A stretch of DNA of 64,000 bases from an uncultured Gammaproteobacteria bacterium. GTDB lineage: Bacteria > Patescibacteriota > Patescibacteriia > Magasanikbacterales > GWA2-37-8. The stretch covers positions 1,147,773-1,211,772 of the forward strand of contig CAZQUL010000001.1 of assembly GCA_964596525.1 (NCBI GenBank), written 5' to 3'. The translations under genes and the position numbers were made by a program. The notes beneath the pieces are model-generated. The model did no database searches. It saw only the letters and a list, made by a program, of their open reading frames with translations, and was not told the origin of the DNA. Below, piece after piece: positions 1,410 to 56,224 of the stretch; the first letter of the stretch is position 1, and every line of letters starts with the position of its first letter.

Positions 1410-2213
1410 TTAATTCTTTCTTGAAGAGGTAAAAAAATCTTTGAGGACTAAAAAGGGGAAAATTGCCGTCGCGTTAAAAATACGAACTAGGCGGTGCGGC
1501 TGGTAGGCAAGTCGAAACAACCATTCAAAACCAATTTTTCTCATAAAATAAGGCGCACGAGGGACTTTTCCGGCTAGATAATCCAACGCACCTCCCACTC
1601 CAATAGCAATTTTAACCGAAGGGAGCTCTGGTAAAAATTGATGAATCCATTTTTCTTGCTTGCCCATACCAAAGGCGACAATAAGCACTGCCGGACGCTT
1701 AGCATTAATATCCGCCAGAACGGCAGCGTGCTCTTCTGCATCGTATGAGAGCCCGGTGGCCGTTTCGGTGATGCGAGGACCCGGATGGAACCCCGCAACC
1801 TTCAGCAGTGGAAAGCGGGATGTCAGTTCGTTGGCCGCAGCAGAGACCGTAGCCTCATCGGCCGCACCTATAAGATAGATACTCACTCCGATTTTCTCTG
1901 CCTCCGCACATAACGTAGTAATAAAATCAGCACCTGGCTGGCGATAGACGCGCTCTTCTTGATTCATTTCTGCGATACGCAATGCAAGCTCCGCACCCCG
2001 TCCATCACATAAATTAATGTCGGCCGCATTGAGCACGTTTTTAAAGGCAGGGTCCCGAGACGCTTTGACAAGCATCTCGGGATTGGGCGTAAAAATTTTG
2101 GTTGGCAAGGACGAAGACAGCGCCGACTCTACAAGCAGAGGGAGCTTGGGGGGAGGGCAGCAAGAAAAATGCACGCCAAGCAAAAACCGCTGAGGAAAAC
2201 GTAGGGCGCTCAT
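1410..2213 (-). CDS. WecB/TagA/CpsF-family glycosyltransferase (N-acetylmannosaminyltransferase-like)
   Basis: TPNPE...DG, GFHPG, IAIGVGGALDYLAG and the GFEWLFRL motif; 4-bp overlap with the upstream helicase gene; N-terminal start uncertain. Confidence 0.7.
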   Translation of the reverse strand: MSALRFPQRFLLGVHFSCCPPPKLPLLVESALSSSLPTKIFTPNPEMLVKASRDPAFKNVLNAADINLCDGRGAELALRIAEMNQEERVYRQPGADFITTLCAEAEKIGVSIYLIGAADEATVSAAANELTSRFPLLKVAGFHPGPRITETATGLSYDAEEHAAVLADINAKRPAVLIVAFGMGKQEKWIHQFLPELPSVKIAIGVGGALDYLAGKVPRAPYFMRKIGFEWLFRLAYQPHRLVRIFNATAIFPFLVLKDFFTSSRKN

Positions 2214-3520
2214 ACATGTTCGGGATGAAGGGAGGCAATAAAATTAACAACCGAAGAATCGACCTGAATGTGGCGTGGCAGAAGCGGCCGTTTGAGGCGC
2301 AGGCCTTCGAGAGTGCGGCAGCGGCTGAGCGCTACGTAAAGCTGCCCGTGTGCAAACGTGCCAAAACCAATATCGATCATGACGTTATCGAATGTTTGGC
2401 CTTGGCTTTTATGGATGGTGATGGCCCAAGCCAATTTAAGCGGATACTGGGTAAACGAGCCTACTGCCTGGCTTTCTACAGCGTGCGCATCGGGATCGAT
2501 GACAAATTCATACTGGTCCCATTCATGAGGCATAACACTAACCACCCCTCCCCCATCGATTTCCACCATAACGACGCACGAACGATCGCTCCCGTCTTCA
2601 AATGACACGACGGTGCCGAGGGTTCCGTTGACCCAGCGGTTCTGCACGTCGTTATTGAGAAGCATAACGCGCGCGCCCACTTTGAGCTCAAGCACCTCAT
2701 CGGTCGGGAAACTTTTGGCATCAAAATCGCCAGCGACCCGGCCAATAAATGAACGCGGATCATCGGTCAGTTCTTTCAAACACTGATCGTTAATGTTTTT
2801 GGCGAGCGCATTGGTGGTGCACAGGTATACCGGCGGCCGATCGCTATCGGGCATAAAATCTGGATCATGACGATCGTTAAGCAGGCGAAAATGGTCATCA
2901 GTCGCAGTGTTGGACCGCACTGCATTGAGAAGATCAATAAAAATATGGTCATTCTGGCGAAAAATACGGCTTAACTCAATGGTGCGCATAGTAAAGCCGG
3001 TAAGGGGCTGAAGCGCACGAGCCGAAAAAAAATACGGCGTGTCGTAACGGCCTTTGAGCATTTCTTGATCGCGATCGGTAACGACCGGCGGAAGCTGAAA
3101 AAGATCGCCAATAAAGATCATTTTTACTCCGCCAAAAGGCGCGGTGCGGCTTGGACCGTTAAGACGAAGGAATTTATCGACGCAATCGAGCAGGTCGGCA
3201 CGCACCATGGAAATCTCGTCGATAACGATGATTTCAAGCGCGCGGTAGAGTTCATCTTCTTCTACTTTACGGACCTGTGAGAGCGTGACGCTGGGCTTGA
3301 AACCAAAAAACGAATGGATGGTTTGACCGGCGATATTTACAGCGGCAACGCCCGTAGGCGCGAGCGCAACGAGACTCCGTTTGGTAGCTGCGCGAAAGCG
3401 TTTGAGAAGTGTTGATTTTCCGGTTCCGGCCCGTCCGGTGATGAAGAGGTGCTCTGATCCATTTTCCATGAGTTCGATAATGCTGTCGAAGGAAAGGTGT
3501 TGGTTTGTCGCTGATTTCAT
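2210..3520 (-). CDS. PIF1/RecD-like superfamily-1 DNA helicase
   Basis: Walker A GRAGTGKST, DEISMV, and a C-terminal HKSQGQTFD...ALSRCR helicase C-domain motif. Confidence 0.75.
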   Translation of the reverse strand: MKSATNQHLSFDSIIELMENGSEHLFITGRAGTGKSTLLKRFRAATKRSLVALAPTGVAAVNIAGQTIHSFFGFKPSVTLSQVRKVEEDELYRALEIIVIDEISMVRADLLDCVDKFLRLNGPSRTAPFGGVKMIFIGDLFQLPPVVTDRDQEMLKGRYDTPYFFSARALQPLTGFTMRTIELSRIFRQNDHIFIDLLNAVRSNTATDDHFRLLNDRHDPDFMPDSDRPPVYLCTTNALAKNINDQCLKELTDDPRSFIGRVAGDFDAKSFPTDEVLELKVGARVMLLNNDVQNRWVNGTLGTVVSFEDGSDRSCVVMVEIDGGGVVSVMPHEWDQYEFVIDPDAHAVESQAVGSFTQYPLKLAWAITIHKSQGQTFDNVMIDIGFGTFAHGQLYVALSRCRTLEGLRLKRPLLPRHIQVDSSVVNFIASLHPEHV

Positions 3521-4077
3521 ACCCCCGCGCTCAACGGATAATGGCCGAGGATGGTATATTCCGATCGCCCATCCTGATGCTCGCTTTTCATAACGAAAAT
3601 TTCATTAACCGTCCATACTTTACGCTCGATCTCAATGGTATGCAAAGGTGCTTCATGGTGCCAGGCATGGCTCACCCGCCCGAGCGTGATGTGCGGATGC
3701 CATTCATGATCAGGCGTAATAAGCTTACGCGCCAAAAGTTCGGCACGTACCGTATCATGCAGATGGTTTAAAGCCGCTTTTTCTTCTCCAATGCGAACGA
3801 CCAGTATACGCGGATCGGAAAGGCTAGGAAACCCATCGAGACGCTCGAGCCAAACCGGCGTAGGCTGGGTGCGCTCAGCGGCAGTTTTAACGATACTTTT
3901 CACCTCTTCAACCTGCTCGTTCTCAAGTTCGCCGATGAATTCGAGCGTAATATGAAAATTTTCTGGCGGCGATAAGCGGACAGGCATTTTTCGGTCGATC
4001 ATCCGAATAGTACGCTGTACGGTTTGCAGATAATCACGTACTACGGACGGAACAGAGAAGGCAATAAAGGTACGCAT
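3517..4077 (-). CDS. thpR: RNA 2',3'-cyclic phosphodiesterase, 2H family (ThpR/LigT)
   Basis: Two H-x-T-x motifs (HITLEF, HITLGR), about 186 aa. Confidence 0.75.
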   Translation of the reverse strand: MRTFIAFSVPSVVRDYLQTVQRTIRMIDRKMPVRLSPPENFHITLEFIGELENEQVEEVKSIVKTAAERTQPTPVWLERLDGFPSLSDPRILVVRIGEEKAALNHLHDTVRAELLARKLITPDHEWHPHITLGRVSHAWHHEAPLHTIEIERKVWTVNEIFVMKSEHQDGRSEYTILGHYPLSAGV

Positions 4078-4217
4078 ATCAGAATGAAAAATGTATAGGA
4101 ATAATAATAAAAAAAAGACCCTTTAACAAGGACACGGGCAAAAGATACCTATCTAAAAAGCCGCACTTAGACGGCTTCACGTGGACAGGGAGACGGGAGG
4201 TTTAGAAAGGTATATGA

Positions 4218-4388
4218 CTAGATGCAATTCATATTAGGCGGGCAGCAGCCACTTTCAGGGTCAGAGCATCTAAAAATTGGTTCCGGTTCAGGCTCGGATT
4301 TATCTCCGCATCCCGGCTCGTTGAGGGCAACAGTGTAGATAGACAGGGCGACGAAAACTTTTTTTATTCTACTCACTAACAACTTCAT
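4218..4388 (-). CDS. Small secreted cysteine-rich peptide (56 aa), not in the ORF track
   Basis: ATG preceded by AAGGAG with a 7-8 nt spacer. Hydrophobic N-terminus, then CGDKSEPEPEPIFRCSDPESGCCPPNMNCI. Hairpin plus U-run terminator on the minus strand just downstream. Confidence 0.5.
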   Translation of the reverse strand: MKLLVSRIKKVFVALSIYTVALNEPGCGDKSEPEPEPIFRCSDPESGCCPPNMNCI

Positions 4389-4433
4389 GGTCCTTCTCCT
4401 TAATGCAGGGCAATTAACGGGCCCTGCTCCGTT

Positions 4434-5450
4434 TTAGGCCTTGCTAAAAGCAGGCAATGAAGTAATTTCCGGATGCAGTCCAAGATAGGCGCGTGTGATT
4501 TTTTCTACTTCTGCTGGCGAAGCGGCTTCATCCATAAGCTGAACACGTAATTCCTTGGCACCATCAAAACCGGAAACATACGCCTTGTAATGCTTCTTCA
4601 TAATTGCAAAATTCTTCTTATCACCAAGAAGCTCATGGAACAGGTACGTATGTTCGATCATTGTTTCGAGACGTTCACCGACGGTTACGGTGTGATAATC
4701 CCGATTACGATTAAAAAGCCAGGGATTGCCAAAAATACCACGGCCGATCATCACACCGTCGCAACCAGTTTGAGCGACTTTCTGGCGCGCATCATTAAGG
4801 TCAACCACATCACCGTTACCGAGAATAAGTGTGCGCGTCGGTGAACTGTCGTAGGTATTGCGAATTTCGACGGCGCGGGCGACTCGTTCCCACCGTGCCG
4901 GTACGAGCGATAATTCTTTTTTGGTACGACAGTGGAGCGTAATAGCTGCCGGCTCAGTTTCAAGAAGATACGGAAGCCACGTTTCGAGGGTGTCGGTATT
5001 AAAGCCGAGGCGGGTTTTGACCGATACCGGCAACGTGCCGGCACCGCGCTTGGTAGCGCGAATGATTTCCTGGGCGAGACGCGGAGTTTTAATGAGTGCC
5101 GCACCCGAAGCTTGTTTCCCGGAAACGCTCTTGTCCGGGCAGCCCATGTTAATATCGATACCATCAAAACCGAGCTCCGCGATAAGGCGTGCGGTTTCAT
5201 AAAACGTATCCGGGTTGGCACCGAAAATCTGAGCAATAATGGGCCGTTCTTCGTCGGTATAGATAAGATCAGTGAGAATGCTTTCGCGGCCTGGAGAGCA
5301 GAGCCCGTCGCAGGATACGAATTCGGTCCAGATGATATCCGGCTTACCATGGCGAGCGATAAGACGCCGAAAAGCCGCGTCGGTGACGTTAGCCATCGGC
5401 GCGAGCACAAAGCATGGTTTTGGCAGCGTGGTCCAAAAACCGGAAATCAT
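4434..5450 (-). CDS. dus: tRNA-dihydrouridine synthase
   Basis: LAPMANVTD N-terminus, TIM-barrel Dus motifs, catalytic-Cys region GCP. Confidence 0.8.
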   Translation of the reverse strand: MISGFWTTLPKPCFVLAPMANVTDAAFRRLIARHGKPDIIWTEFVSCDGLCSPGRESILTDLIYTDEERPIIAQIFGANPDTFYETARLIAELGFDGIDINMGCPDKSVSGKQASGAALIKTPRLAQEIIRATKRGAGTLPVSVKTRLGFNTDTLETWLPYLLETEPAAITLHCRTKKELSLVPARWERVARAVEIRNTYDSSPTRTLILGNGDVVDLNDARQKVAQTGCDGVMIGRGIFGNPWLFNRNRDYHTVTVGERLETMIEHTYLFHELLGDKKNFAIMKKHYKAYVSGFDGAKELRVQLMDEAASPAEVEKITRAYLGLHPEITSLPAFSKA

Positions 5451-21375: not shown

Positions 21376-21783
21376 ATGCGAAAACATGCGGTTTCTTTGC
21401 TCATTGTGAATGCACTTGGCATGGTCGGCTGCATGGAGGATTTTCTCAAGCCACTGCCGGCCCCGTCGGCGCAAGAGCTTGCAGCTGAGCGTGCCGAGCA
21501 AGCACGGGTCGAACGCGAGAGCGCTACCAGCAACATCTTGTATTCAGCGCTTCATCGCCATACCAATAATTTCATCTTCGTTTTCGATATGCGCGATGGC
21601 ACATGCACGAAGATGGGATACTTCCCTATGAACTCGCACCACGGAACGGTGGTCGCGCTGCCGGTCCCTAGCCCCACATGCGCCAAGCCAGAGCTCAAGG
21701 ACCACCTCGTCACTCTCTACGGCCCGGATGAGGCCGCCGAAGCTCTGCCGGACGCCGGGGCACCCACCAAGGATCTGCGATGA
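21376..21783 (+). CDS. Putative lipoprotein, hypothetical
   Basis: Signal peptide with a lipobox-like LGMVGC; SD GAGGAG. Confidence 0.5.
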   Translation: MRKHAVSLLIVNALGMVGCMEDFLKPLPAPSAQELAAERAEQARVERESATSNILYSALHRHTNNFIFVFDMRDGTCTKMGYFPMNSHHGTVVALPVPSPTCAKPELKDHLVTLYGPDEAAEALPDAGAPTKDLR

Positions 21784-30940: not shown

Positions 30941-31165
30941 ATGACCCGTAGCGCGAAGAAACGTGTTGTGCTGTGCGCAGTTTTCAACCTCACACTGTTT
31001 CTCGGGTTTGGAGGTGACCGTCTCTTAATCGCGGCTCATGCGGCCGACAGAGGCAGCGGTGAAGGAGATAAGGGGGTCAAGCCGACCGACCCCCAGCCGC
31101 AGCCGCCCAAGCCGCCACCCAAGGACGACCCGCCGAACCCGCCGCCGGTCAAGGACAAGCGTTAG
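30941..31165 (+). CDS. Small secreted proline-rich protein (74 aa)
   Basis: Strong SD AAGGAGG; signal peptide; PQPQPPKPPPKDDPPNPPP tail; terminator downstream. Confidence 0.55.
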   Translation: MTRSAKKRVVLCAVFNLTLFLGFGGDRLLIAAHAADRGSGEGDKGVKPTDPQPQPPKPPPKDDPPNPPPVKDKR

Positions 31166-36824: not shown

Positions 36825-36941
36825 AGATGGTTAGTATAGATTAATTCCTTATATAAGTATCGTAGAGATATGAAATAAGGAAGTCAAGAGACAATTAGAA
36901 TTTCGGATTAACTCTCGGTATTGCACGATTATCAGGGAACT

Positions 36942-38045
36942 TTACAACACATCACGCAGTTCTTCGAGCTTACGCTTAAGTTCTTTGGATACTTTGCGCG
37001 GTACGTTGATTTTGAGCTCAACATAGAGATCACCGCGCGTCGAGGGACGATTGAGAACCGGAATACCGTGATGTTTGAGCCGGATACGTTGACCATGCTC
37101 AGAACCTTCAGGAATTTCTATCTTAAGCATTCCTTCGAGCGACTCGATCTCGACGGTATCGCCCAAAACAGCTTGCGTAAAGCTGATAGTTTTTTCTACA
37201 TACACATCGAACCCTTCACGGCGAAAACCTTTGAGCGGTTTAAGATGGACCGCGACGTACAGGTCACCTTTCACGCCGCCATGAGGAGCAGCTTCGCCCA
37301 AACCCGTAAGACGGATGGACTGCCCCGCGTCGATACCGGCGGGAATCTTGACCGTGTGCTTGACGGTTTTCGCAAGAATACCGTCACCACCACAGTGTTT
37401 GCATTTTTTAGCCGCATGCTCTCCCCTACCTTGACAGGTCGGGCACGGGGCAACCGTCTGCATGGTACCCAAAAAGGTGCGCTGATTCTGCACCACCTGG
37501 CCGCGTCCGTGGCAGGTACCGCATGTTTCCATTTTACTCCCGGGTTCGGCGCCACTGCCGGTACAAACTTCACACGTGTCTTGTTTGCGCAGCTGGATTT
37601 CTTTTTCCACGCCAAAAGCCGCTTCTTTAAAATCAAGTTCAATATCGACTTGAATGTCATTACCGCGCGCCCGGCCGCCTCCCCGCCCACCGCCGCCGAA
37701 ACCAAAGAGGTCGCCGAACATATCGCCGAAATCCATGCCGCCGAAATTGAAGTTGAAGTTGCCCTGCCCTCCACCGCCGCGCGTCGCGCGCATGAAATCT
37801 TCCCAATTCATACCGCCGCCAAAGCCGCCCTGCTGCTCAAAATCGGAACCGAACTGGTCGTAACGTTTACGTTTTTCCGCATCGTTAAGAACTTGGTATG
37901 CTTCATTGATTTCCTTAAACTTCTTTTCATCGCCCGTCGGGCGGTCGGGGTGATACTGCAACGCAAGCTTTTTGAAAGCTTTCTTTATATCGTCGGGAGA
38001 GGCGTTTTTTTCGACGCCGAGAATTTTGTAATAATCTTTGGACAT
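36942..38045 (-). CDS. dnaJ: Chaperone DnaJ
   Basis: J-domain HPD, Gly/Phe-rich region, four CxxCxGxG zinc-finger repeats. Confidence 0.9.
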   Translation of the reverse strand: MSKDYYKILGVEKNASPDDIKKAFKKLALQYHPDRPTGDEKKFKEINEAYQVLNDAEKRKRYDQFGSDFEQQGGFGGGMNWEDFMRATRGGGGQGNFNFNFGGMDFGDMFGDLFGFGGGGRGGGRARGNDIQVDIELDFKEAAFGVEKEIQLRKQDTCEVCTGSGAEPGSKMETCGTCHGRGQVVQNQRTFLGTMQTVAPCPTCQGRGEHAAKKCKHCGGDGILAKTVKHTVKIPAGIDAGQSIRLTGLGEAAPHGGVKGDLYVAVHLKPLKGFRREGFDVYVEKTISFTQAVLGDTVEIESLEGMLKIEIPEGSEHGQRIRLKHHGIPVLNRPSTRGDLYVELKINVPRKVSKELKRKLEELRDVL

Positions 38046-38224
38046 AAGGGAAATGAGGCTAGCGGATGATTATAGTACGGGATACTAGGCAGGAAATAAG
38101 AATTGCGATTTTTAAATAGATTTTTTCATACAAAGCATCCACAGGTATTATTGAATACATCGATAAAACCAGTAAACTGCATGCGCGGCCATTTATGGCT
38201 TGAACTAAAAACTGAGGTGGAACA

Positions 38225-38470
38225 ATGCGCACGTCCCTGTTTGCACTCCTGGTTTCCAGCGCCCTGTTTACTGGGGTGACGATTGGTTATACGCTCGAGA
38301 AGGGCAAACCAATCGTGAGGATCAAGCAGTCCTCCGCCAAGGCCAAGGCTGATGATGGTGAATCGACCAAGTGCAAAACCTGCACGACTAATGCTGACTG
38401 CACAGGCGGCGCGCCGTGCGGCAGCACATGCATCCAATCGATCGTACCAGACTATAAGTACTGCGGCTAA
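38225..38470 (+). CDS. Small cysteine-rich protein with N-terminal hydrophobic segment (signal peptide or anchor), family member A (6 Cys)
   Basis: SD GAGGTGG; hydrophobic N-terminal segment ...FTGVTIGY; C-terminus KCKTCTTNADCTGGAPCGSTC; terminator downstream. Confidence 0.6.
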   Translation: MRTSLFALLVSSALFTGVTIGYTLEKGKPIVRIKQSSAKAKADDGESTKCKTCTTNADCTGGAPCGSTCIQSIVPDYKYCG

Positions 38471-38498
38471 CAATCACTCCAAGCCACCCGCCCAATCA

Positions 38499-38535
38499 TC
38501 AGGCGCGTTTGAAACGCGCGTGATGATTTTTTTAT
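38499..38535 (+). terminator. Intrinsic terminator (caggcgcgtt-tgaa-acgcgcgtg plus T7)
   Basis: Read directly. Confidence 0.65.
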
Positions 38536-38740
38536 TTAAACAGAACCGGCTTGAATCGATCGAAATGCTGCTAAAAAAGGGAGCTGTGCGTGTAACTTCT
38601 TTCTTAAATCCGCTGTAATGTACCTGATTTGACTTGACAAATCAATCGGTTAGGAGTAAGGTGAGCTGTCCTAGCAGGATTTTCCGTACCCCCTATTTGT
38701 AACAACAGGAGGTGAGACATGGACCACTGAGGAGGTGCCC

Positions 38741-39082
38741 ATGTTCCAGGTTACGTATTGGACGCACGATGATCCCACCCGCTCACGCTGCATTGATCTT
38801 TTTCCTGCCGACCCTCGCTTCCCGATGGTGTGCATCTGGACCCAGGTTGAGTTCGCAGCCGAAGCGTGGGATGTGACCGTCGACCCGGAGGGTTTCACGA
38901 TCGTTCCTCAGCCGCCGGAGATCGTCGAGCCTTGTGAAATGGCGAGTGAGATCATCGACGTCGTGGTGGCGGATTCCCCTATCGCGACGGCACTCATCGA
39001 CGCGATTCTGGCCTTTATCGTGGCCACGACGCCGCACCAGGATGCGCTCTACGCTGGCCTCAGCCATCCGCAGCACGCTTAG
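38741..39082 (+). CDS. Acidic cytoplasmic protein, hypothetical (114 aa)
   Basis: SD GAGGAGG 6 nt before the ATG; no TM; promoter-like TTGACA-17-TAAGGT about 100 nt upstream. Confidence 0.45.
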   Translation: MFQVTYWTHDDPTRSRCIDLFPADPRFPMVCIWTQVEFAAEAWDVTVDPEGFTIVPQPPEIVEPCEMASEIIDVVVADSPIATALIDAILAFIVATTPHQDALYAGLSHPQHA

Positions 39083-39178
39083 CTCCAAGCCCCCCCGCGG
39101 GGCTTTTATGTTTGTTGACTAAGCAGGATTTTCTTGATACGTTCTCTTGCGGATTCATAGACCAACGGAGGACACCAG

Positions 39179-39475
39179 ATGAAAAAACGTCGCGGTTATC
39201 AGCGCTTATGGGTAATGCTTGGCGCGATGATGATCTCTTCTTTACTCGATAACGCAGCCCGTAATTATTCTCGAGAAACAACGCTTACCGCCAGAGTGCC
39301 ACAAGCATGCGCAGTTACCGGTTGCGGTACGGTCTGTACGAGCGACAACGAATGCCTAAACGACCGATGTCCCGACTGCGTAAAAAAAGGAGACCGCCAT
39401 GTGTGCTCAAAGATCGTAGACGAACGGACAGCCGGAAGCATCCGATTCACTACCCCCTCACGCTCACAGCATTAA
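39179..39475 (+). CDS. Small cysteine-rich protein with N-terminal hydrophobic segment (signal peptide or anchor), family member B (7 Cys)
   Basis: SD ACGGAGG; promoter TTGACT...TGaTACGTT; ACAVTGCGTVCTSDNECLNDRCPDC. Confidence 0.6.
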   Translation: MKKRRGYQRLWVMLGAMMISSLLDNAARNYSRETTLTARVPQACAVTGCGTVCTSDNECLNDRCPDCVKKGDRHVCSKIVDERTAGSIRFTTPSRSQH

Positions 39476-39503
39476 GCGCCACACTCGGGTGTTGAGCGCT
39501 TTT

Positions 39504-40124
39504 TCATTTAAAAACTACGGCAACCGATACGCTCGGAACGAGCAAACCCACCAAACGGCGTATTTCCTCTTCAGTCTCTCTCTGGATTTCCTGCCGCAGT
39601 TCGGGAGTTTGAGCAGCCTTTTCCGCCTCTGTTTTAAGGGCAGTAAGCGCTTGATTATATCCATCGTCGCTATCAAAGATCTTTTTGAGTACGCCTTGGG
39701 TATTTTTAACTGTCACCGCCCCGATAATTTCGGTACTATAGTGAGTCGGAAGCGGCAGGGCGATGGTTAATTGGCCGCCGCTCTCTTGAATATCGGCTGC
39801 GGCAAGTTTAGATAAATCGACACCCGAACTTATCTTTACGTGCGCGCTCGCGGAAATGTATTGTTTCCAGAGCACGTCTTTAAAGAAACTACCCGCAGTG
39901 TTGTTGATATCCACGGTTTGATTGAAGAGGTATGTTTGTGTAATAAGAAAGCCTTGTCCACGCAATGCTAAAAGGATGGTTTGGGACGTAGGTCGGGATG
40001 TTTCCGTTTCTGTCTTTCGATAGAGGCTGCGAGCGGTAAAAAAACCGCCGATGAACACAGCCGCGACGCACGCGGCAACGATGAGATATTTTTTAGGCAT
40101 ACGATGTTCTACAGACTTATCCAA
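39504..40124 (-). CDS. Membrane-anchored protein, possibly DUF4230-like, hypothetical
   Basis: Single N-terminal TM; about 200 aa. Confidence 0.45.
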   Translation of the reverse strand: MDKSVEHRMPKKYLIVAACVAAVFIGGFFTARSLYRKTETETSRPTSQTILLALRGQGFLITQTYLFNQTVDINNTAGSFFKDVLWKQYISASAHVKISSGVDLSKLAAADIQESGGQLTIALPLPTHYSTEIIGAVTVKNTQGVLKKIFDSDDGYNQALTALKTEAEKAAQTPELRQEIQRETEEEIRRLVGLLVPSVSVAVVFK

Positions 40125-40132
40125 AATATACT

Positions 40133-40160
40133 TGACTATTTTATCATGTTTAATATACTG
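40133..40160 (+). promoter_or_regulatory. Strong sigma70-like promoter TTGACT-16-TATACT for Cys-rich gene C
   Basis: Read directly. Confidence 0.5.
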
Positions 40161-40195
40161 TGTTTTGCCTTGATAACCCCAGAGGAGAACACATC

Positions 40196-40399
40196 GTGAA
40201 CAAGGTTAGAGCCTTAATCGTAGCTAGCACCACCGCGTTGACCATTCTTACCGGAATTGCGGCCGATCGTTTATGGAACGGCCGTTGGTTCTGGAAAAAT
40301 TCGGCGTGTGCCGGAATCGGCGAATGCATTCGCAATTCCTGCACGCAGCAGATGCAGTGTTCCGGCAATTGTAAGTGCATAAATAATATCTGCCAGTAG
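40196..40399 (+). CDS. Small cysteine-rich protein with N-terminal hydrophobic segment (signal peptide or anchor), family member C (7 Cys)
   Basis: GTG start with GAGGAG SD; ACAGIGECIRNSCTQQMQCSGNCKC. Confidence 0.55.
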   Translation: MNKVRALIVASTTALTILTGIAADRLWNGRWFWKNSACAGIGECIRNSCTQQMQCSGNCKCINNICQ

Positions 40400-40532
40400 G
40401 CCACGCCGCAAACGCCCCAAGGAGGGCTTTTTTGTAATCAGATTTTCACCTCTATTGACAAATAACTTACACCCCGGTTATCGTTAGAGATGTTCTTCTA
40501 AACAAACCACCCACACGAAGAAAGGAAGAGCC

Positions 40533-40823
40533 ATGCGCATGGGAAGCCTCCATCTGCCGAATTTTAAAAAAGCTTCTATTCTCTTGGGCATTACTTGTAT
40601 TTTTTCCGGACTCACCTGCAGCTTCCCATCCTCGCCAGGAAATAGACTGCCGACCATCGCCGTCAATCAGGCGTGCAGCGAAGGAAATTCTAATTGCCAG
40701 GTGTGTACTGAGGACAGGGAGTGTTCTGGAGCAGCGTGCGGGCCAAAATGCGATTGGTGGGTTTACATCGGACAAGTACCGGTCGAAAAGTATGGAAAAC
40801 GCTGCCGCGATCAGGTGCGCTAA
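40533..40823 (+). CDS. Small cysteine-rich protein with N-terminal hydrophobic segment (signal peptide or anchor), family member D
   Basis: SD AAGGAAG; hydrophobic N-terminus; ACSEGNSNCQVCTEDRECSGAACGPKC. Confidence 0.55.
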   Translation: MRMGSLHLPNFKKASILLGITCIFSGLTCSFPSSPGNRLPTIAVNQACSEGNSNCQVCTEDRECSGAACGPKCDWWVYIGQVPVEKYGKRCRDQVR

Positions 40824-40862
40824 AGAGGCTTTTCTATCTTGGCCCTGCAACCTTAGGAGGAC

Positions 40863-41123
40863 ATGATGCGACTAAGATCTCTCTCGAAACGTACGAGGAT
40901 AGGTATTTTCGCAGCTCTCGCGCTCACCACTACCTTTTTCGGCGGCGTGACGATCAAGCGCAATTTTCTTGAGCCGTCGCCGCGGGCAGCCTGCGCTTCT
41001 GGCGGATGTACCGCGGATTGTACAGCGAGCGGCAGCTGTAGCGGCGACTGCACCTGTAACGGCTCTGTCGGCGACAAGAAGCGCAGTTGCGTATCTCCTC
41101 CGGGCGGCCACGTCGGCCGCTAG
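40863..41123 (+). CDS. Small cysteine-rich protein with N-terminal hydrophobic segment (signal peptide or anchor), family member E (7 Cys)
   Basis: SD TAGGAGG; leader ...FGGVTIK; ACASGGCTADCTASGSCSGDCTC; terminator downstream. Confidence 0.6.
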   Translation: MMRLRSLSKRTRIGIFAALALTTTFFGGVTIKRNFLEPSPRAACASGGCTADCTASGSCSGDCTCNGSVGDKKRSCVSPPGGHVGR

Positions 41124-41296
41124 GATGAGCTGAACTGGGCAGAATATAGACTGTTTCTCCCACGCGCCTTAACGGCGCTTTTTTATTAATCTGCGTACTT
41201 ACTTCAATTTATTTTATCTTGACAATTCGCTGAACCGACCACATAATTCACATGGCCTTGAAAGAACAACATGATTACGAAAAAGGATGAGAACCC

Positions 41297-41710
41297 ATGC
41301 ACAATCCGCTCAAGAACCTGACTCGGACCAAACTCGCGATCGGTTTTTCGGTCGTCATTTCTGGTCTATTATCCGGAGTAACGATTGGCCGCCAGCACGG
41401 GCCCTTCAAGCAGAACAAGGCTTGCGCCGGGGATCGCGAGTGCGAGCCAACCTGTTCTAAAAATGAAGACTGCCACAGCATGTGCAAGTGCTGCATCCAA
41501 AAAGGTCGATCGACTGGAAAGTGCATTCAGAAGTGCACGAAGTGCGACACGAACGGCCCTATCGCCTCCTGGCTGGACCAGATGCTGTCGATCCCCACGG
41601 CAGCGGCAGACTGCCGGCCGGTTAATGCTTGTGAAGACGACTCCGACTGCCTAATGCCCGGTTCGCGGTGTGTCTCCACGCCGTGCGGAAACCGCTGCCA
41701 GGGAAAATGA
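41297..41710 (+). CDS. Cysteine-rich protein with N-terminal hydrophobic segment (signal peptide or anchor), family member F (two Cys-rich modules, 19 Cys)
   Basis: Promoter TTGACA-17-CATAAT; leader ...LSGVTIGR; ACAGDRECEPTCSKNEDCHSMCKCC plus a second Cys-rich module; terminator downstream. Confidence 0.6.
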   Translation: MHNPLKNLTRTKLAIGFSVVISGLLSGVTIGRQHGPFKQNKACAGDRECEPTCSKNEDCHSMCKCCIQKGRSTGKCIQKCTKCDTNGPIASWLDQMLSIPTAAADCRPVNACEDDSDCLMPGSRCVSTPCGNRCQGK

Positions 41711-41839: not shown

Positions 41840-43753
41840 CTATTTTACCACTTCGCCTTCAATCGGACCTTCATCTTTCTTGTCATTCGATGCTCCAGCA
41901 TCAGATCCTGGTGCGGCTCCCCCGCCCTGCTTAGCCTGCTGTTCCTGCGCGTACATCTTGGTTCCGACCGCCTGCGCTGCATTCGAGAGCTCGTCAACAG
42001 CTTTCTTCATCGCTTCTACATCATCCTTGTCTTTCACTTCCTTGAGTTTTGCGAGTCCTTCCTGGACTTTCTTTTTCTCATCGTCAGTAATGGAAGAAAT
42101 CTTTTTCTCTTCCACGTCCTTCATCATCTTTTCGGTCGTGTAGATCATCGTGTCGGCGATGTTGCGCGCTTCGATGAGTTCTTGTTTTTTCTTGTCTTCG
42201 CCAGCATGCGCTTCAGCATCTTTTTTCATGCGTTCGATTTCGTCTTTCGACAAACCGGTCGAAGCTTCGATGCGCACCGACTGTTCTTTGCCGGTCGCTT
42301 TGTCTTTGGCCTTCACGTTCAAGATGCCGTTAGCATCGATGTCGAAGGTTACTTCGACCTGCGGTACGCCGCGCGGAGCCGGCGGGATATCGCCGAGGAT
42401 GAACCGTCCGAGCGTCTTGTTATCTCCTGCCATCGGGCGCTCGCCCTGGAGTACGTGGATTTCCACACTCGGCTGATTGTCCGAGGCAGTCGAGAAGACC
42501 TGCGATTTGCTCGCCGGGATCGTGGTATTGCGTTCGATGAGTTTGGTCATCACGCCACCCATGGTTTCGATACCAAGAGAAAGCGGGGTGACATCAAGAA
42601 GAAGCACGTCTTTTACATCACCGCGGAGTACGCCTCCCTGTACCGCCGCGCCGACCGCGACGACTTCGTCGGGGTTCACGCTGATATTGGGTTTTTTGTT
42701 GAAGAATTTTTCGACCGAGGAGTAGACGAGCGGCATGCGCGTCATACCGCCGACCATCACGACTTCGTCAATCTGGCTCGTCGAGAGCTTGGCGTCTTCA
42801 AGCGCGCGCTTGACCGGTTCCATGGTTTTTTTAACCAGATCACCGACCAATTCTTCGAGCTTGGCACGGGTAAGTTTCATCACCAAGTGCTTCGGACCAG
42901 TCGCATCCGACGTGATGAACGGTTGGTTGATTTCGGATTCCTGCGCAGTCGAAAGTTCGATCTTCGCTTTTTCGGCAGCTTCTTTGATGCGCTGCAGAGC
43001 GAGCGGATCTTTGGAGAGATCGATGGTTTCGGTTTTCTTGAATTCATCGAGGATCCAGCGGATAATAACCTGATCGAAGTCATCGCCGCCAAGATGCGTA
43101 TCGCCGTTCGTCGAAAGCACCTGTACCGAGTCGGCGCTTACTTCGAGCACTGATACGTCGAACGTGCCGCCGCCGAGGTCGTAAACCATGATTTTCTGGT
43201 CTTTCTTTTTATCGAAACCGTAAGCGAGCGCGGCTGCGGTCGGTTCGTTGATGATGCGGAGCACTTTCAGACCCGCGATCTCGCCCGCATCTTTGGTGGC
43301 CTGGCGCTGCGCATCGTCGAAGTACGCCGGAACGGTGATAACCGCTTCGGTGATTTTTTCACCCACGCGCTCTTCGGCATCAGCTTTGAGTTTCTGAAGC
43401 ACCATCGCCGAGATTTCCTGCGGCGTGTATTCTTTGCCGCCCATCACGACTTTCACGCCTTCGCCGGACTTGATGATCTTGTACGGCATCAGGTTCAGGT
43501 CGCGCTGCACTTCGGCATCATCCCACTTGCGGCCGATAAGGCGCTTGATGGAATAGAGCGTGTTTTCCGGGTTGGTGACGGCCTGGCGCTTGGCCAGCTG
43601 ACCCACGAGGCGCTCGGCGCTTTTCGAGGTCGCGATCATGGACGGCGTCGTGCGCGCGCCTTCCTTGTTTTCTAATACTTTCGGCTGGCCGCCTTCGATG
43701 ATGGCCATGCACGAATTGGTTGTACCGAGGTCGATTCCGAGGACTTTGGACAT
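41840..43753 (-). CDS. dnaK: Chaperone DnaK (Hsp70)
   Basis: [16 protein letters not shown] and other Hsp70 signatures; start at M15. Confidence 0.9.
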
Positions 43754-43757
43754 AGAA

Positions 43758-44177
43758 TTATCTATTAGAGTTATAAATATGAGGCTTAAATACATTCACA
43801 GATTTTTTATTCTCCGGAAAAACTAGCAATTCATTACTACATTCTTGATTAGGGCATTTAAAATTATCTTCGTTTGAATTAACTGGGACAAGTCTCATGG
43901 CAATTTGTTTTTTATCCCAGCAGGATGTGCAAAATGGCCCTCTTTCATGCATGGGTATTTTTTTATCCTTGAGCCAATAAGTATAGTTAATAACCTCTAT
44001 ACTTTCTTTAAACTTCAGTTTCTCCATTAAATCCTGATTTTTTTCTTTTAGAGCTGCATTTTCTGCAAGTAATTTACTTACATCTTTTTGCAACTCAAGG
44101 ACATTATTATGCAATTCAATGTTTCGAGCTTGCCCAGCCAGGTCAGCTAAAGTTTTAAGATTATCTAGAATAGCCAT
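43758..44177 (-). CDS. Coiled-coil protein with a C-terminal CxxC...CxxxC zinc ribbon, hypothetical (AT-rich)
   Basis: CTSCWDKK...CPNQEC; markedly AT-rich codon usage compared with the flanks. Confidence 0.45.
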
Positions 44178-47790: not shown

Positions 47791-48075
47791 ATGAATAAGA
47801 CCGCGCGCCGTTGGTTTGGATATTTTCTGGTCGGGGCCACCATTACTCTTGTCTACGGTGGCACCCGTGCCGAGTCCCCTCGGGCTTATACCCATGAGTC
47901 GCTTACCGCAGCCGTGAATAACAACAAGGCTGCCGCCCAAAATCAGGGCCGAAGCGGATGCAGCGGAGGCGGAAGCTCGTCAACCTCCGGCTCCCCGCCC
48001 AGCCCATCCTCTGCCGATTCCGCAGCGTCGGAAGCAAACAGCCCGCTCGATTCCCCGGCCATGAGCGCGCCCTAG
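47791..48075 (+). CDS. Small secreted Ser/Gly-rich protein, hypothetical
   Basis: SD AAGGAG; signal peptide; terminator downstream. Confidence 0.5.
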   Translation: MNKTARRWFGYFLVGATITLVYGGTRAESPRAYTHESLTAAVNNNKAAAQNQGRSGCSGGGSSSTSGSPPSPSSADSAASEANSPLDSPAMSAP

Positions 48076-54611: not shown

Positions 54612-54800
54612 ATGACAGGAAAGTCCGTGCCCGAAGAGGGCGTCGTCACGCTGTGCGGTACGCAGGGATGCTGCCCCACGGTCGATTTCACCGAGCCCGG
54701 CAAGGTCATCATCAAGGATGACCATGGCGGCCGCGTCGAGCTGAACGCGGGCGAGTGGAACGATCTGAAGGGCAAGTTCTCCGCGACCGGCAAGCGCTGA
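54612..54800 (+). CDS. Small Cys-containing peptide (62 aa); candidate radical-SAM substrate or RiPP precursor
   Basis: SD AAGGAG 6 nt upstream; core TLCGTQGCCPTVDF; sits immediately 5' of the rSAM/SPASM gene. Confidence 0.5.
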   Translation: MTGKSVPEEGVVTLCGTQGCCPTVDFTEPGKVIIKDDHGGRVELNAGEWNDLKGKFSATGKR

Positions 54801-54889
54801 TCCAACCGCGCCTTCGGGCGCATCACCGGCTCCTAGCCACTACGCGTGGTTAGGAGCCATTTCATTTACGTGGAATTCGGAGGGCTCAC

Positions 54890-56224
54890 ATGTGGTCAAA
54901 ATATCTGTGCACGAAGGAACGTAATGGGATCGTGGCCGTATTCCACGAGCTGCATCCTGATCCGCTCTTTTTTCCCAAAGGTGAATGGGAGCGTCTAAAG
55001 CTAGGGAAAAATCTTGAAAACGAACAGGGGTTTGACGCCCTGCGCGACGCTAAGCTCCTTATCGTAGGACCGGAAGTGGATGAGGAGGAGTTCGCGACTA
55101 CAGAACGTCATCTTGAGCGTAAGCTCAGCCAACCAACCATCCTGTATCTTATGACCGCCCAAGGCTGCAACATGGTCTGCGGATACTGCCCGGTTCCCGG
55201 CTTGGCAAAAAAATACGGCGCATCATTGCTATCGGCGTCGGATGCCGTAGCGGGAATCAACCTGTGGCTAGAGCACCTCAAGGAGAGCTACAATCCTACC
55301 ACATCCTACTTCGTCATTTTCTACGGCGGTGAACCGCTCTTGAATAAACCGACTATCCGCGCATCAATTGATCATATTGCCAGGCTAAGAGCGGAAACAA
55401 ACGCCCTGCCGGAGAAGCTCAACCTTATGATCGCCACCAACGGCCTTCTCATGGATCAAGAGATGATCTCGCTCTGCAAAGAGCACGGCATCATGGTGGC
55501 GGTTGGGCTCGACGGTCCGCGTGAAGTACACGATGCGTTGAAAGTCGATACGCAGGGCTTGGGAACATTCGAGCGTATCGTTGCGGTCATCCGAATGCTG
55601 GTAGTGCAGGGGGTTAGAACAGTCGTATCGACGACAATTACCCCTTTCAACATAGGCCGGATGAAGGATTACTCCCGATTCTTTGAGGAGTTGGGCGTTG
55701 AAAAATTCGGCTTCAACTTCCTCAAAGGGAAAGCATTGCTCGAACTCGTTGGTCCTGACGGTCAAAAAAATTACTATCGTCAGGCTGCCCGCGGAGTCAT
55801 CGAACATGCTCGGCTGCAGCACCGAACAGGTTTTGAGTATCAGATGGAGAAGAAAGTGCTGGCTTTCAACCAGCGCGATTTTTTCCCGGTTGACTGCACC
55901 TGTTACGGAAACCAGCTCGTAATCCAACCCGATGGGCAGATTTCCAACTGCCCGTTCTACAAAGCCTGTCTGGGGCAGGTCGGAACAATCACCCCAGAGT
56001 TTCGCATAAGCGAGCAGGAAATTGTACATTCCTGGCGCAAACGACTTCCGCTCTATCATTCGGGTGCAGCCAAGGCTCTCAGCGGCGGGGGCTGCGCATG
56101 GAGTTCGATCGAAGTAAACGGCACACCTTCGACCGAAGATGAATCCAGCCGTATTTTCTCAGAGGAGGCGCTCGATGAACTCATCTGGTCTCGCTACGAT
56201 AAGCTCCGAACAGGCCAAGCCTAA
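54890..56224 (+). CDS. Radical SAM enzyme with a SPASM/twitch C-terminal domain and an N-terminal extension of about 85 aa (RRE-like?); peptide-modifying maturase candidate
   Basis: CNMVCGYCP (CX3CX2C); C-terminal CTCYGN...NCPFYKAC...GGGCAWSS auxiliary-cluster cysteines. Confidence 0.7.
   Translation: MWSKYLCTKERNGIVAVFHELHPDPLFFPKGEWERLKLGKNLENEQGFDALRDAKLLIVGPEVDEEEFATTERHLERKLSQPTILYLMTAQGCNMVCGYCPVPGLAKKYGASLLSASDAVAGINLWLEHLKESYNPTTSYFVIFYGGEPLLNKPTIRASIDHIARLRAETNALPEKLNLMIATNGLLMDQEMISLCKEHGIMVAVGLDGPREVHDALKVDTQGLGTFERIVAVIRMLVVQGVRTVVSTTITPFNIGRMKDYSRFFEELGVEKFGFNFLKGKALLELVGPDGQKNYYRQAARGVIEHARLQHRTGFEYQMEKKVLAFNQRDFFPVDCTCYGNQLVIQPDGQISNCPFYKACLGQVGTITPEFRISEQEIVHSWRKRLPLYHSGAAKALSGGGCAWSSIEVNGTPSTEDESSRIFSEEALDELIWSRYDKLRTGQA

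Follow-up and report, generated by a model that had tools for sequence, protein, structure and literature searches.

A candidate lineage-specific gene for a small exported cysteine-rich peptide next to dus in a Magasanikbacteria-like CPR bacterium

Disulfide-containing class II bacteriocins exemplify the generic small, Cys-rich peptides that bacteria export through the Sec system, and the Cys order C-C-CC-C-C characterizes the cystine-knot or conotoxin framework. Bacteria of the CPR (Patescibacteria) have tiny genomes and are dependent on other cells, a dependence for which surface and secreted proteins are the leading candidate mediators. Large extracellular Cys-rich proteins with predicted signal peptides, which average about 1,655 aa and are encoded in gene clusters, have been described in the CPR Peribacteria, where a role at the surface or in attachment was proposed (PMC4736985). 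Our search of the literature on small Cys-rich CPR peptides found no paper.

Here we analyzed a window of DNA, meaning the whole 64-kb stretch under study, which contains a 56-codon open reading frame (ORF) on the minus strand between dus and thpR. We propose, with a probability of about 0.55, that this ORF is a lineage-specific orphan gene of a Magasanikbacteria-like CPR bacterium, which is transcribed together with dus and encodes an acidic disulfide peptide of ~35 aa exported by the Sec system. Named homologues of the Dus protein place the window in Candidatus Magasanikbacteria or Patescibacteria. The features of the locus, and of a second locus to which it is compared, are as follows.

3517-4077 (-), thpR, encoding a LigT/ThpR-type phosphoesterase (E 2e-19); a Pif1-like helicase gene lies beyond it and overlaps it by 4 nt
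4101..4129 (-), promoter-like TTGTTA-17-TATTAT ahead of thpR, 9/12 matches, a consensus match only
4155..4178 (-), terminator-like hairpin GAAGCCGU-CUAAGU-GCGGCUUU followed by UU, 39 nt past the stop of the small ORF
4218..4388 (-), the small ORF, ATG start and TAG stop, 56 codons, product MKLLVSRIKKVFVALSIYTVALNEPGCGDKSEPEPEPIFRCSDPESGCCPPNMNCI
4221..4310 (-), codons 27-56, Cys module CGDKSEPEPEPIFRCSDPESGCCPPNMNCI, acidic and Pro-rich, net charge -4
4323..4388 (-), codons 1-22, signal-peptide-like N-terminus: n-region MKLLVSRIKK (+4) and h-region VFVALSIYTVAL, then NEPG
4396..4401 (-), Shine-Dalgarno (SD) sequence AAGGAG, with a 7-nt spacer to the ATG at 4388-4386
4405..4427 (-), GC-rich hairpin between the dus stop and the SD, a perfect 7 bp (GCAGGGC-9 nt-GCCCTGC)
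4434-5450 (-), dus, encoding a Dus dihydrouridine synthase (Pfam E 3e-61), stop at 4434-4436
36942-38045 (-), dnaJ, one boundary of the array
38225-41710 (+), array of six paralogous small ORFs (79-137 aa) between dnaJ and dnaK
41840-43795 (-), dnaK, the other boundary of the array

The first-pass annotation had described a 56-aa minus-strand ORF between thpR and dus, an ATG with AAGGAG at ideal spacing, and a hydrophobic N-terminus followed by five Cys. Our reading agrees on each of these points: the translation matches the quoted peptide exactly, the measured gap is 7 nt, and the product contains both the hydrophobic segment and the five Cys (C27, C41, C48, C49, and C55). The ORF had also been called unannotated, which holds for the track of ORFs of at least 60 aa, where it is absent, but not for the protein collection, which already records it as a called, unnamed gene product from NCBI and Logan sources. 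If real, it would be an example of the short genes that are missed below the usual length cut-offs. We re-read the ORF on two Logan assemblies; the NCBI source contig is 1.34 Mb long. The two assemblies are 99.95-100% identical to the window in nucleotide sequence, and since these other copies come from the same strain, dN/dS is not computable. The neighbouring genes encode Dus, LigT/ThpR, the Pif1 helicase, and a WecG glycosyltransferase.

The predicted product resembles generic secreted Cys-rich peptides in its small size, N-terminal export leader, mature part of ~30-35 aa, and several Cys. However, it shows no sequence relation to any family in Pfam, NCBIfam, or PDB and lies in a context with no immunity gene, transporter, or double-glycine leader; and, while most bacteriocins are cationic, its predicted mature part is strongly acidic. 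With the Peribacteria proteins it shares the CPR lineage, a predicted signal peptide, and Cys richness; in contrast to them, it is solitary and only 56 aa long, and the two are likened by description. The order C...C...CC...C corresponds to the first five Cys of the cystine-knot framework, but this is a resemblance only: the peptide has no sixth Cys, a 13-residue first loop, and no sequence match in PDB. The peptide is best regarded as a hypothetical small secreted protein of an ordinary kind, which leaves the established picture unchanged and opens no long-standing question. A strain-specific, SD-driven, secreted Cys-rich peptide would add slightly to the surface and secreted repertoire of the CPR.

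The N-terminus of the peptide has the organization of a signal peptide. Four positive charges (K2, R7, K9, and K10) precede the h-region, residues 11-22, which consists of 12 uncharged hydrophobic residues, and NEPG breaks the helix behind it. By our heuristic and by hydropathy, the basic n-region, an h-region within the range of 7-15 residues, and the helix breaker of Sec/SPase I substrates are all present, and T19-V20-A21|L22 matches the -3/-1 rule by inspection, making it a candidate SPase I site. An AF2 single-sequence model contains a helix at residues 3-22 with a pLDDT of about 72, while the Cys part stays below 55 and has no confident structure. Type I toxins and other small membrane proteins need a hydrophobic run of ~18 or more residues to span a bilayer, and the run of 12 falls short of this. 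A run of this length does not suffice to anchor a protein in a membrane but is typical of the h-region of a signal peptide; the shortness of the core nevertheless counts against our reading. Cleavage at the candidate site would leave the mature part LNEPGCGDKSEPEPEPIFRCSDPESGCCPPNMNCI, which has a net charge of -5 and contains 7 Pro and all 5 Cys. The (EP)3 stretch is encoded by non-identical codons (GAG CCT GAA CCG GAA CCA) and is therefore not a simple DNA repeat. An odd number of Cys is unusual for a disulfide-stabilized peptide.

In the mechanism that we propose, the Sec system would export the product, and SPase I would cleave it, probably after T19-V20-A21, removing about 21 residues. 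An acidic peptide of ~35 aa would then be released outside the monoderm cell, composed of the spacer EPEPEP and, at the C-terminus, a module of four Cys. The Cys residues of this module, C41, C48, C49, and C55, could form two disulfides, which would leave C27 free or open to an intermolecular bond. A role outside the cell, whether in interactions at the surface or with a host, in signalling, or in antagonism, seems likely but is a guess. Genes for Dsb, VKOR, SPase I (LepB), Lgt, and LspA were not found within the 64-kb window.

The surroundings of the ORF are consistent with its being the last cistron of a transcript shared with dus. A consensus scan found no sigma-70-like promoter between dus and the ORF. 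The hairpin at 4405-4427 folds at -13.5 kcal/mol (z = -2.6 against shuffles), but it has no U-tract behind it and so should not terminate transcription. The missing promoter-like site and this inter-cistronic hairpin without a U-tract together suggest that dus and the peptide would be co-transcribed. Independent translation of the peptide would be driven by the strong AAGGAG sequence. Downstream of the ORF, the hairpin stem at 4178-4157 has 8 bp and folds at -10.5 kcal/mol (z = -2.5), with 3/200 shuffles folding equally well. Of its U5 run, 3 U lie inside the 3' arm of the stem and only 2 U are unpaired. The ORF had been credited with its own terminator; the hairpin and the U5 run do exist, but they are modest, and the consensus terminator scan made no call at 4155-4178. 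The transcript may nevertheless end at this weak hairpin-U5 at 4178-4155, with thpR starting separately from its own promoter-like TTGTTA-17-TATTAT, a site that would bound the transcription unit of the peptide on the 3' side.

The peptide ORF and dus share one reading frame, with a single TAA and 15 sense codons between them (window 4386-4436, minus strand). We considered the peptide as a C-terminal extension of Dus and rejected this, as longer Dus homologues carry internal inserts or N-terminal extensions and no Cys-rich tails. The shared frame is therefore probably a coincidence. Occasional read-through of the dus stop, which would tether some Dus to a hydrophobic Cys-rich tail, is less likely still than the young-gene variant given below.

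Comparison with chance argues against an accidental start site, and we consider translation of the ORF quite probable. The window contains 8 instances of AAGGAG followed, after 5-9 nt, by an ATG that opens an ORF of at least 56 aa; in 300 dinucleotide-preserving shuffles of the window, the mean was 0.24 and the maximum 2. This ~30-fold enrichment implies that about 97% of such sites are non-random, and two others head large Pfam-recognized genes (starts 17648 and 29989). A signal-like N-terminus, defined as an n-region that is free of acidic residues and has at least 2 K/R, followed by at least 10 uncharged hydrophobic residues, is present in 4/324 ORFs of 45-100 aa (1.2%), including this peptide and one array gene. 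Of 375 small ORFs, 13 have at least five Cys within 30 residues, among them the six array genes and the 56-aa peptide; among spurious ORFs the frequency of such Cys richness is about 1.6%. The features of the start site, N-terminus, and Cys were partly chosen post hoc, and their joint probability is not to be taken literally. The 356-nt gap between dus and thpR exceeds the 75th percentile (304 nt) of the gaps between ORFs of at least 100 aa; it is one of the larger co-directional gaps, and the ORF fills it. Three further large gaps hold SD-led small ORFs, with hydrophobic N-termini at 30941 and 47791 and without one at 54612. An accidental ORF is unlikely.

The most substantial alternative, which we regard as unlikely, is that the ORF is non-functional or a proto-gene: the spacer between dus and thpR would be junction DNA, a relic of some rearrangement or insertion, with a chance frame and an SD-like purine run, and the ORF would either have no useful product or be so young a de novo ORF that selection does not yet act on it. 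The strict orphan status of the peptide fits this view, as no collection searched contains a homologue. Among 5.8 billion proteins, a word-indexed search retrieved nothing but the peptide, and an exhaustive phmmer search of 1.84 billion representatives added only P0123 (E 1.3e-4). We rejected P0123 as a homologue, since this 173-aa protein is a three-fold repeat with the look of repetitive DNA translated out of frame. Scans of genome, metagenome, and viral contigs with back-translated patterns gave no match, and neither did Pfam, NCBIfam, PHROGs, PADLOC, or the PDB sequences. With no homologue, there is no evidence of purifying selection on the ORF.

The position of the ORF also fits a junction. 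In the closest genomes, four relatives found through Dus (loci L003-L007), Dus is 74-77% identical, and the collections contain no nearer relative. These genomes share the upstream synteny RNase J - mraZ - rsmH - ftsL-like - dus, and after dus they carry a conserved 118-aa MVDIQEIFNRIQ gene, which in L005 and L006 is preceded by an unrelated 64-aa ORF without Cys. On the other side, relatives of ThpR reach only 36-37% identity, and those of Pif1 (44-51%) are scattered over Pseudomonadota, Paceibacterota, Omnitrophota, and Bacteroidota. No small ORF lies upstream of thpR in two relatives located through ThpR (L008 and L009), and neither thpR nor the peptide is present at twelve Pif1 loci (L010-L021). 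In L009, wecG directly follows thpR, suggesting that pif1 was inserted between these genes in the window genome. The peptide ORF thus lies exactly at a synteny breakpoint after dus, where the conserved core meets a lineage-specific block, and the block on the thpR side was probably acquired; the region concerned spans positions 2210-4433 of the window.

Two candidate connections to the relatives were rejected. By tblastn, 4078-4433 contains no trace of the 118-aa MVDIQEIFNRIQ gene of which the ORF might have been a remnant. In L004, a 99-aa ORF on the opposite strand after dus (5037-5336 (-)) begins with MSIVAALMQAKLTLGCGDPQRPTPHARCS, which weakly resembles GCGDKSEPEPEPIFRCS of the peptide; the match, LTLGCGDPQRPTPHARCS, reaches 50% over 18 aa with an E of 0.38, which is not significant, and the remainder is unrelated.

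Coding statistics give the proto-gene view some further weight. We used a 3-periodic second-order Markov model trained on the 45 long genes of the window. The frame of the peptide is the best of the six, but its absolute score is -0.165 bit/codon, below 99.3% of same-length segments of real genes and reached by 18% of spurious ORFs. The GC content of the ORF is 0.46, versus 0.51 for the genome. The low score is mild evidence against a gene, or a sign of recent or foreign origin. However, the six array genes, a clear paralogous family, score from -0.006 to -0.23, a range that includes the peptide, so this test cannot separate small Cys-rich genes from noise here. Against a chance frame stand also the excess of AAGGAG-led start sites over the shuffles and the low base rates of signal-like N-termini and Cys richness given above. 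We therefore favor an orphan gene with an exported product.

An improbable variant is that of a very young, possibly de novo gene, formed where a foreign thpR-pif1 block joined the mraZ-rsmH-ftsL-dus core, in which both the SD and the export signal are functional. The ORF might then exemplify the birth of a gene at the site of a rearrangement, and an episymbiotic CPR bacterium would have gained a species-specific secreted disulfide peptide for interaction with its host or neighbours.

The first-pass annotation had further grouped the peptide with the dnaK-dnaJ array as one theme of small secreted Cys-rich peptides and proposed a comparison of the Cys patterns. The array ORFs, which run opposite to the hrcA-grpE-dnaK-dnaJ heat-shock cluster and split it, encode proteins with a basic and hydrophobic N-terminus, a G-V-T-I-G motif in three of them, and the framework ACA-x4-6-C-x2-3-C-[TS]-x4-C, the number of Cys ranging from 6 to 16; an SD-like sequence precedes five of the six, and searches of Pfam and NCBIfam assigned the proteins to no family. 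If the peptide were a diverged, miniaturized paralogue of these membrane-anchored proteins with a common function, its architecture would be accounted for: both are small ORFs, SD-led in the peptide and in most of the array, with a basic and hydrophobic N-terminus, a linker, and a Cys-rich tail, both have atypical codon statistics and no Pfam or NCBIfam family, and MAFFT places RCSDPESGCCPPNMNC of the peptide over the array block ACAxxxxCxxxC[TS]xxxxC. However, an HMM of the six array proteins scored the peptide at only 2.4 bits, which 179/2000 full-length and 161/2000 C-terminal-only shuffles equalled or exceeded (8-9%). In our alignment (A1), the G-[VI]-T-I-G motif of the hydrophobic segment and the framework of at least six Cys are absent from the peptide, which has VFVALSIYTVAL and five Cys instead, spaced C-x13-C-x6-CC-x5-C as against C-x4-6-C-x2-3-C-x5-C in the array. 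The hydrophobic core of the peptide, at 12 aa, is also shorter than theirs and looks cleavable rather than anchoring, and its locus lies 34 kb away on the other strand. Membership of the array is not supported by these comparisons; the likeness is one of general architecture only, and common descent with the array is hardly probable.

A lipoprotein, with Cys27 lipidated and two disulfides formed by the other four Cys, or a RiPP precursor with a modified Cys-rich core, is a very remote prospect. In favor of a lipoprotein, Gly26-Cys27 comes after the hydrophobic segment, and if C27 were lipidated, the remaining Cys would be even in number. The PROSITE-type lipobox is {DERK}(6)-[LIVMFWSTAG](2)-[LIVMFYSTAGCQ]-[AGS]-C, its Cys falling within positions 15-35. 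In the peptide this pattern is broken at -2, -3, and -4 by N23-E24-P25, and our lipobox scan of the window did not accept it, whereas it found a canonical candidate at 21376-21783 (+), a 135-aa ORF with LGMVGC. Standard lipoprotein signals thus do occur in this genome. As for a RiPP, a GCCP motif recurs in an SD-led 62-aa ORF beside a radical-SAM gene (54612-56224), but this motif is all that the two ORFs have in common, and the match is not significant (E 0.09). Furthermore, a hydrophobic signal-like leader is atypical of RiPP leaders, and the neighbours of the peptide (Dus, LigT, Pif1, and WecG) include no adjacent maturase, protease, or transporter.

Least probable of all is a non-coding RNA, such as a structured 3'UTR of dus or a leader of thpR, in which the ORF is incidental: the two hairpins do beat shuffles (z about -2.5 each), but hairpins at gene ends are ordinary, the 141-nt region past the ORF stop reaches only z = -1.84, and Rfam gave no family over the region on either strand, with no match at the gathering score and only noise in an E-value scan, so that the conserved ncRNA named beforehand as a possible objection to the ORF is not among known families.

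Other small ORFs of the window deserve mention. The SD-led 62-aa ORF at 54612-54800 (+), MTGKSVPEEGVVTLCGTQGCCPTVDF, lies 90 nt upstream of the radical-SAM gene (54890-56224 (+)), which is followed by a PNP_UDP_1 phosphorylase gene; it could encode a small partner or precursor of the radical-SAM enzyme. The AAGGAG-led ORFs at 30941-31165 (+) and 47791-48075 (+) encode products of 74 and 94 aa that combine a hydrophobic N-terminus with a low-complexity tail rich in Pro or Ser, and they occupy otherwise "empty" gaps.

In Parcubacteria, the anti-SD motif has a patchy distribution (PMC9297842), and against this background the selective use of strong SDs by the window genome is noteworthy. Over the whole window, only about 6/45 long ORFs have an SD core within 22 nt of the first start codon, a census that may hide some SDs because it uses first start codons. 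Strong SDs thus precede a minority of long ORFs, yet they are frequent ahead of small ORFs with hydrophobic N-termini. Finally, a 382-aa open frame at 36921-38069 (+), antisense to dnaJ, is almost certainly spurious and could mislead gene picking that relies on length.
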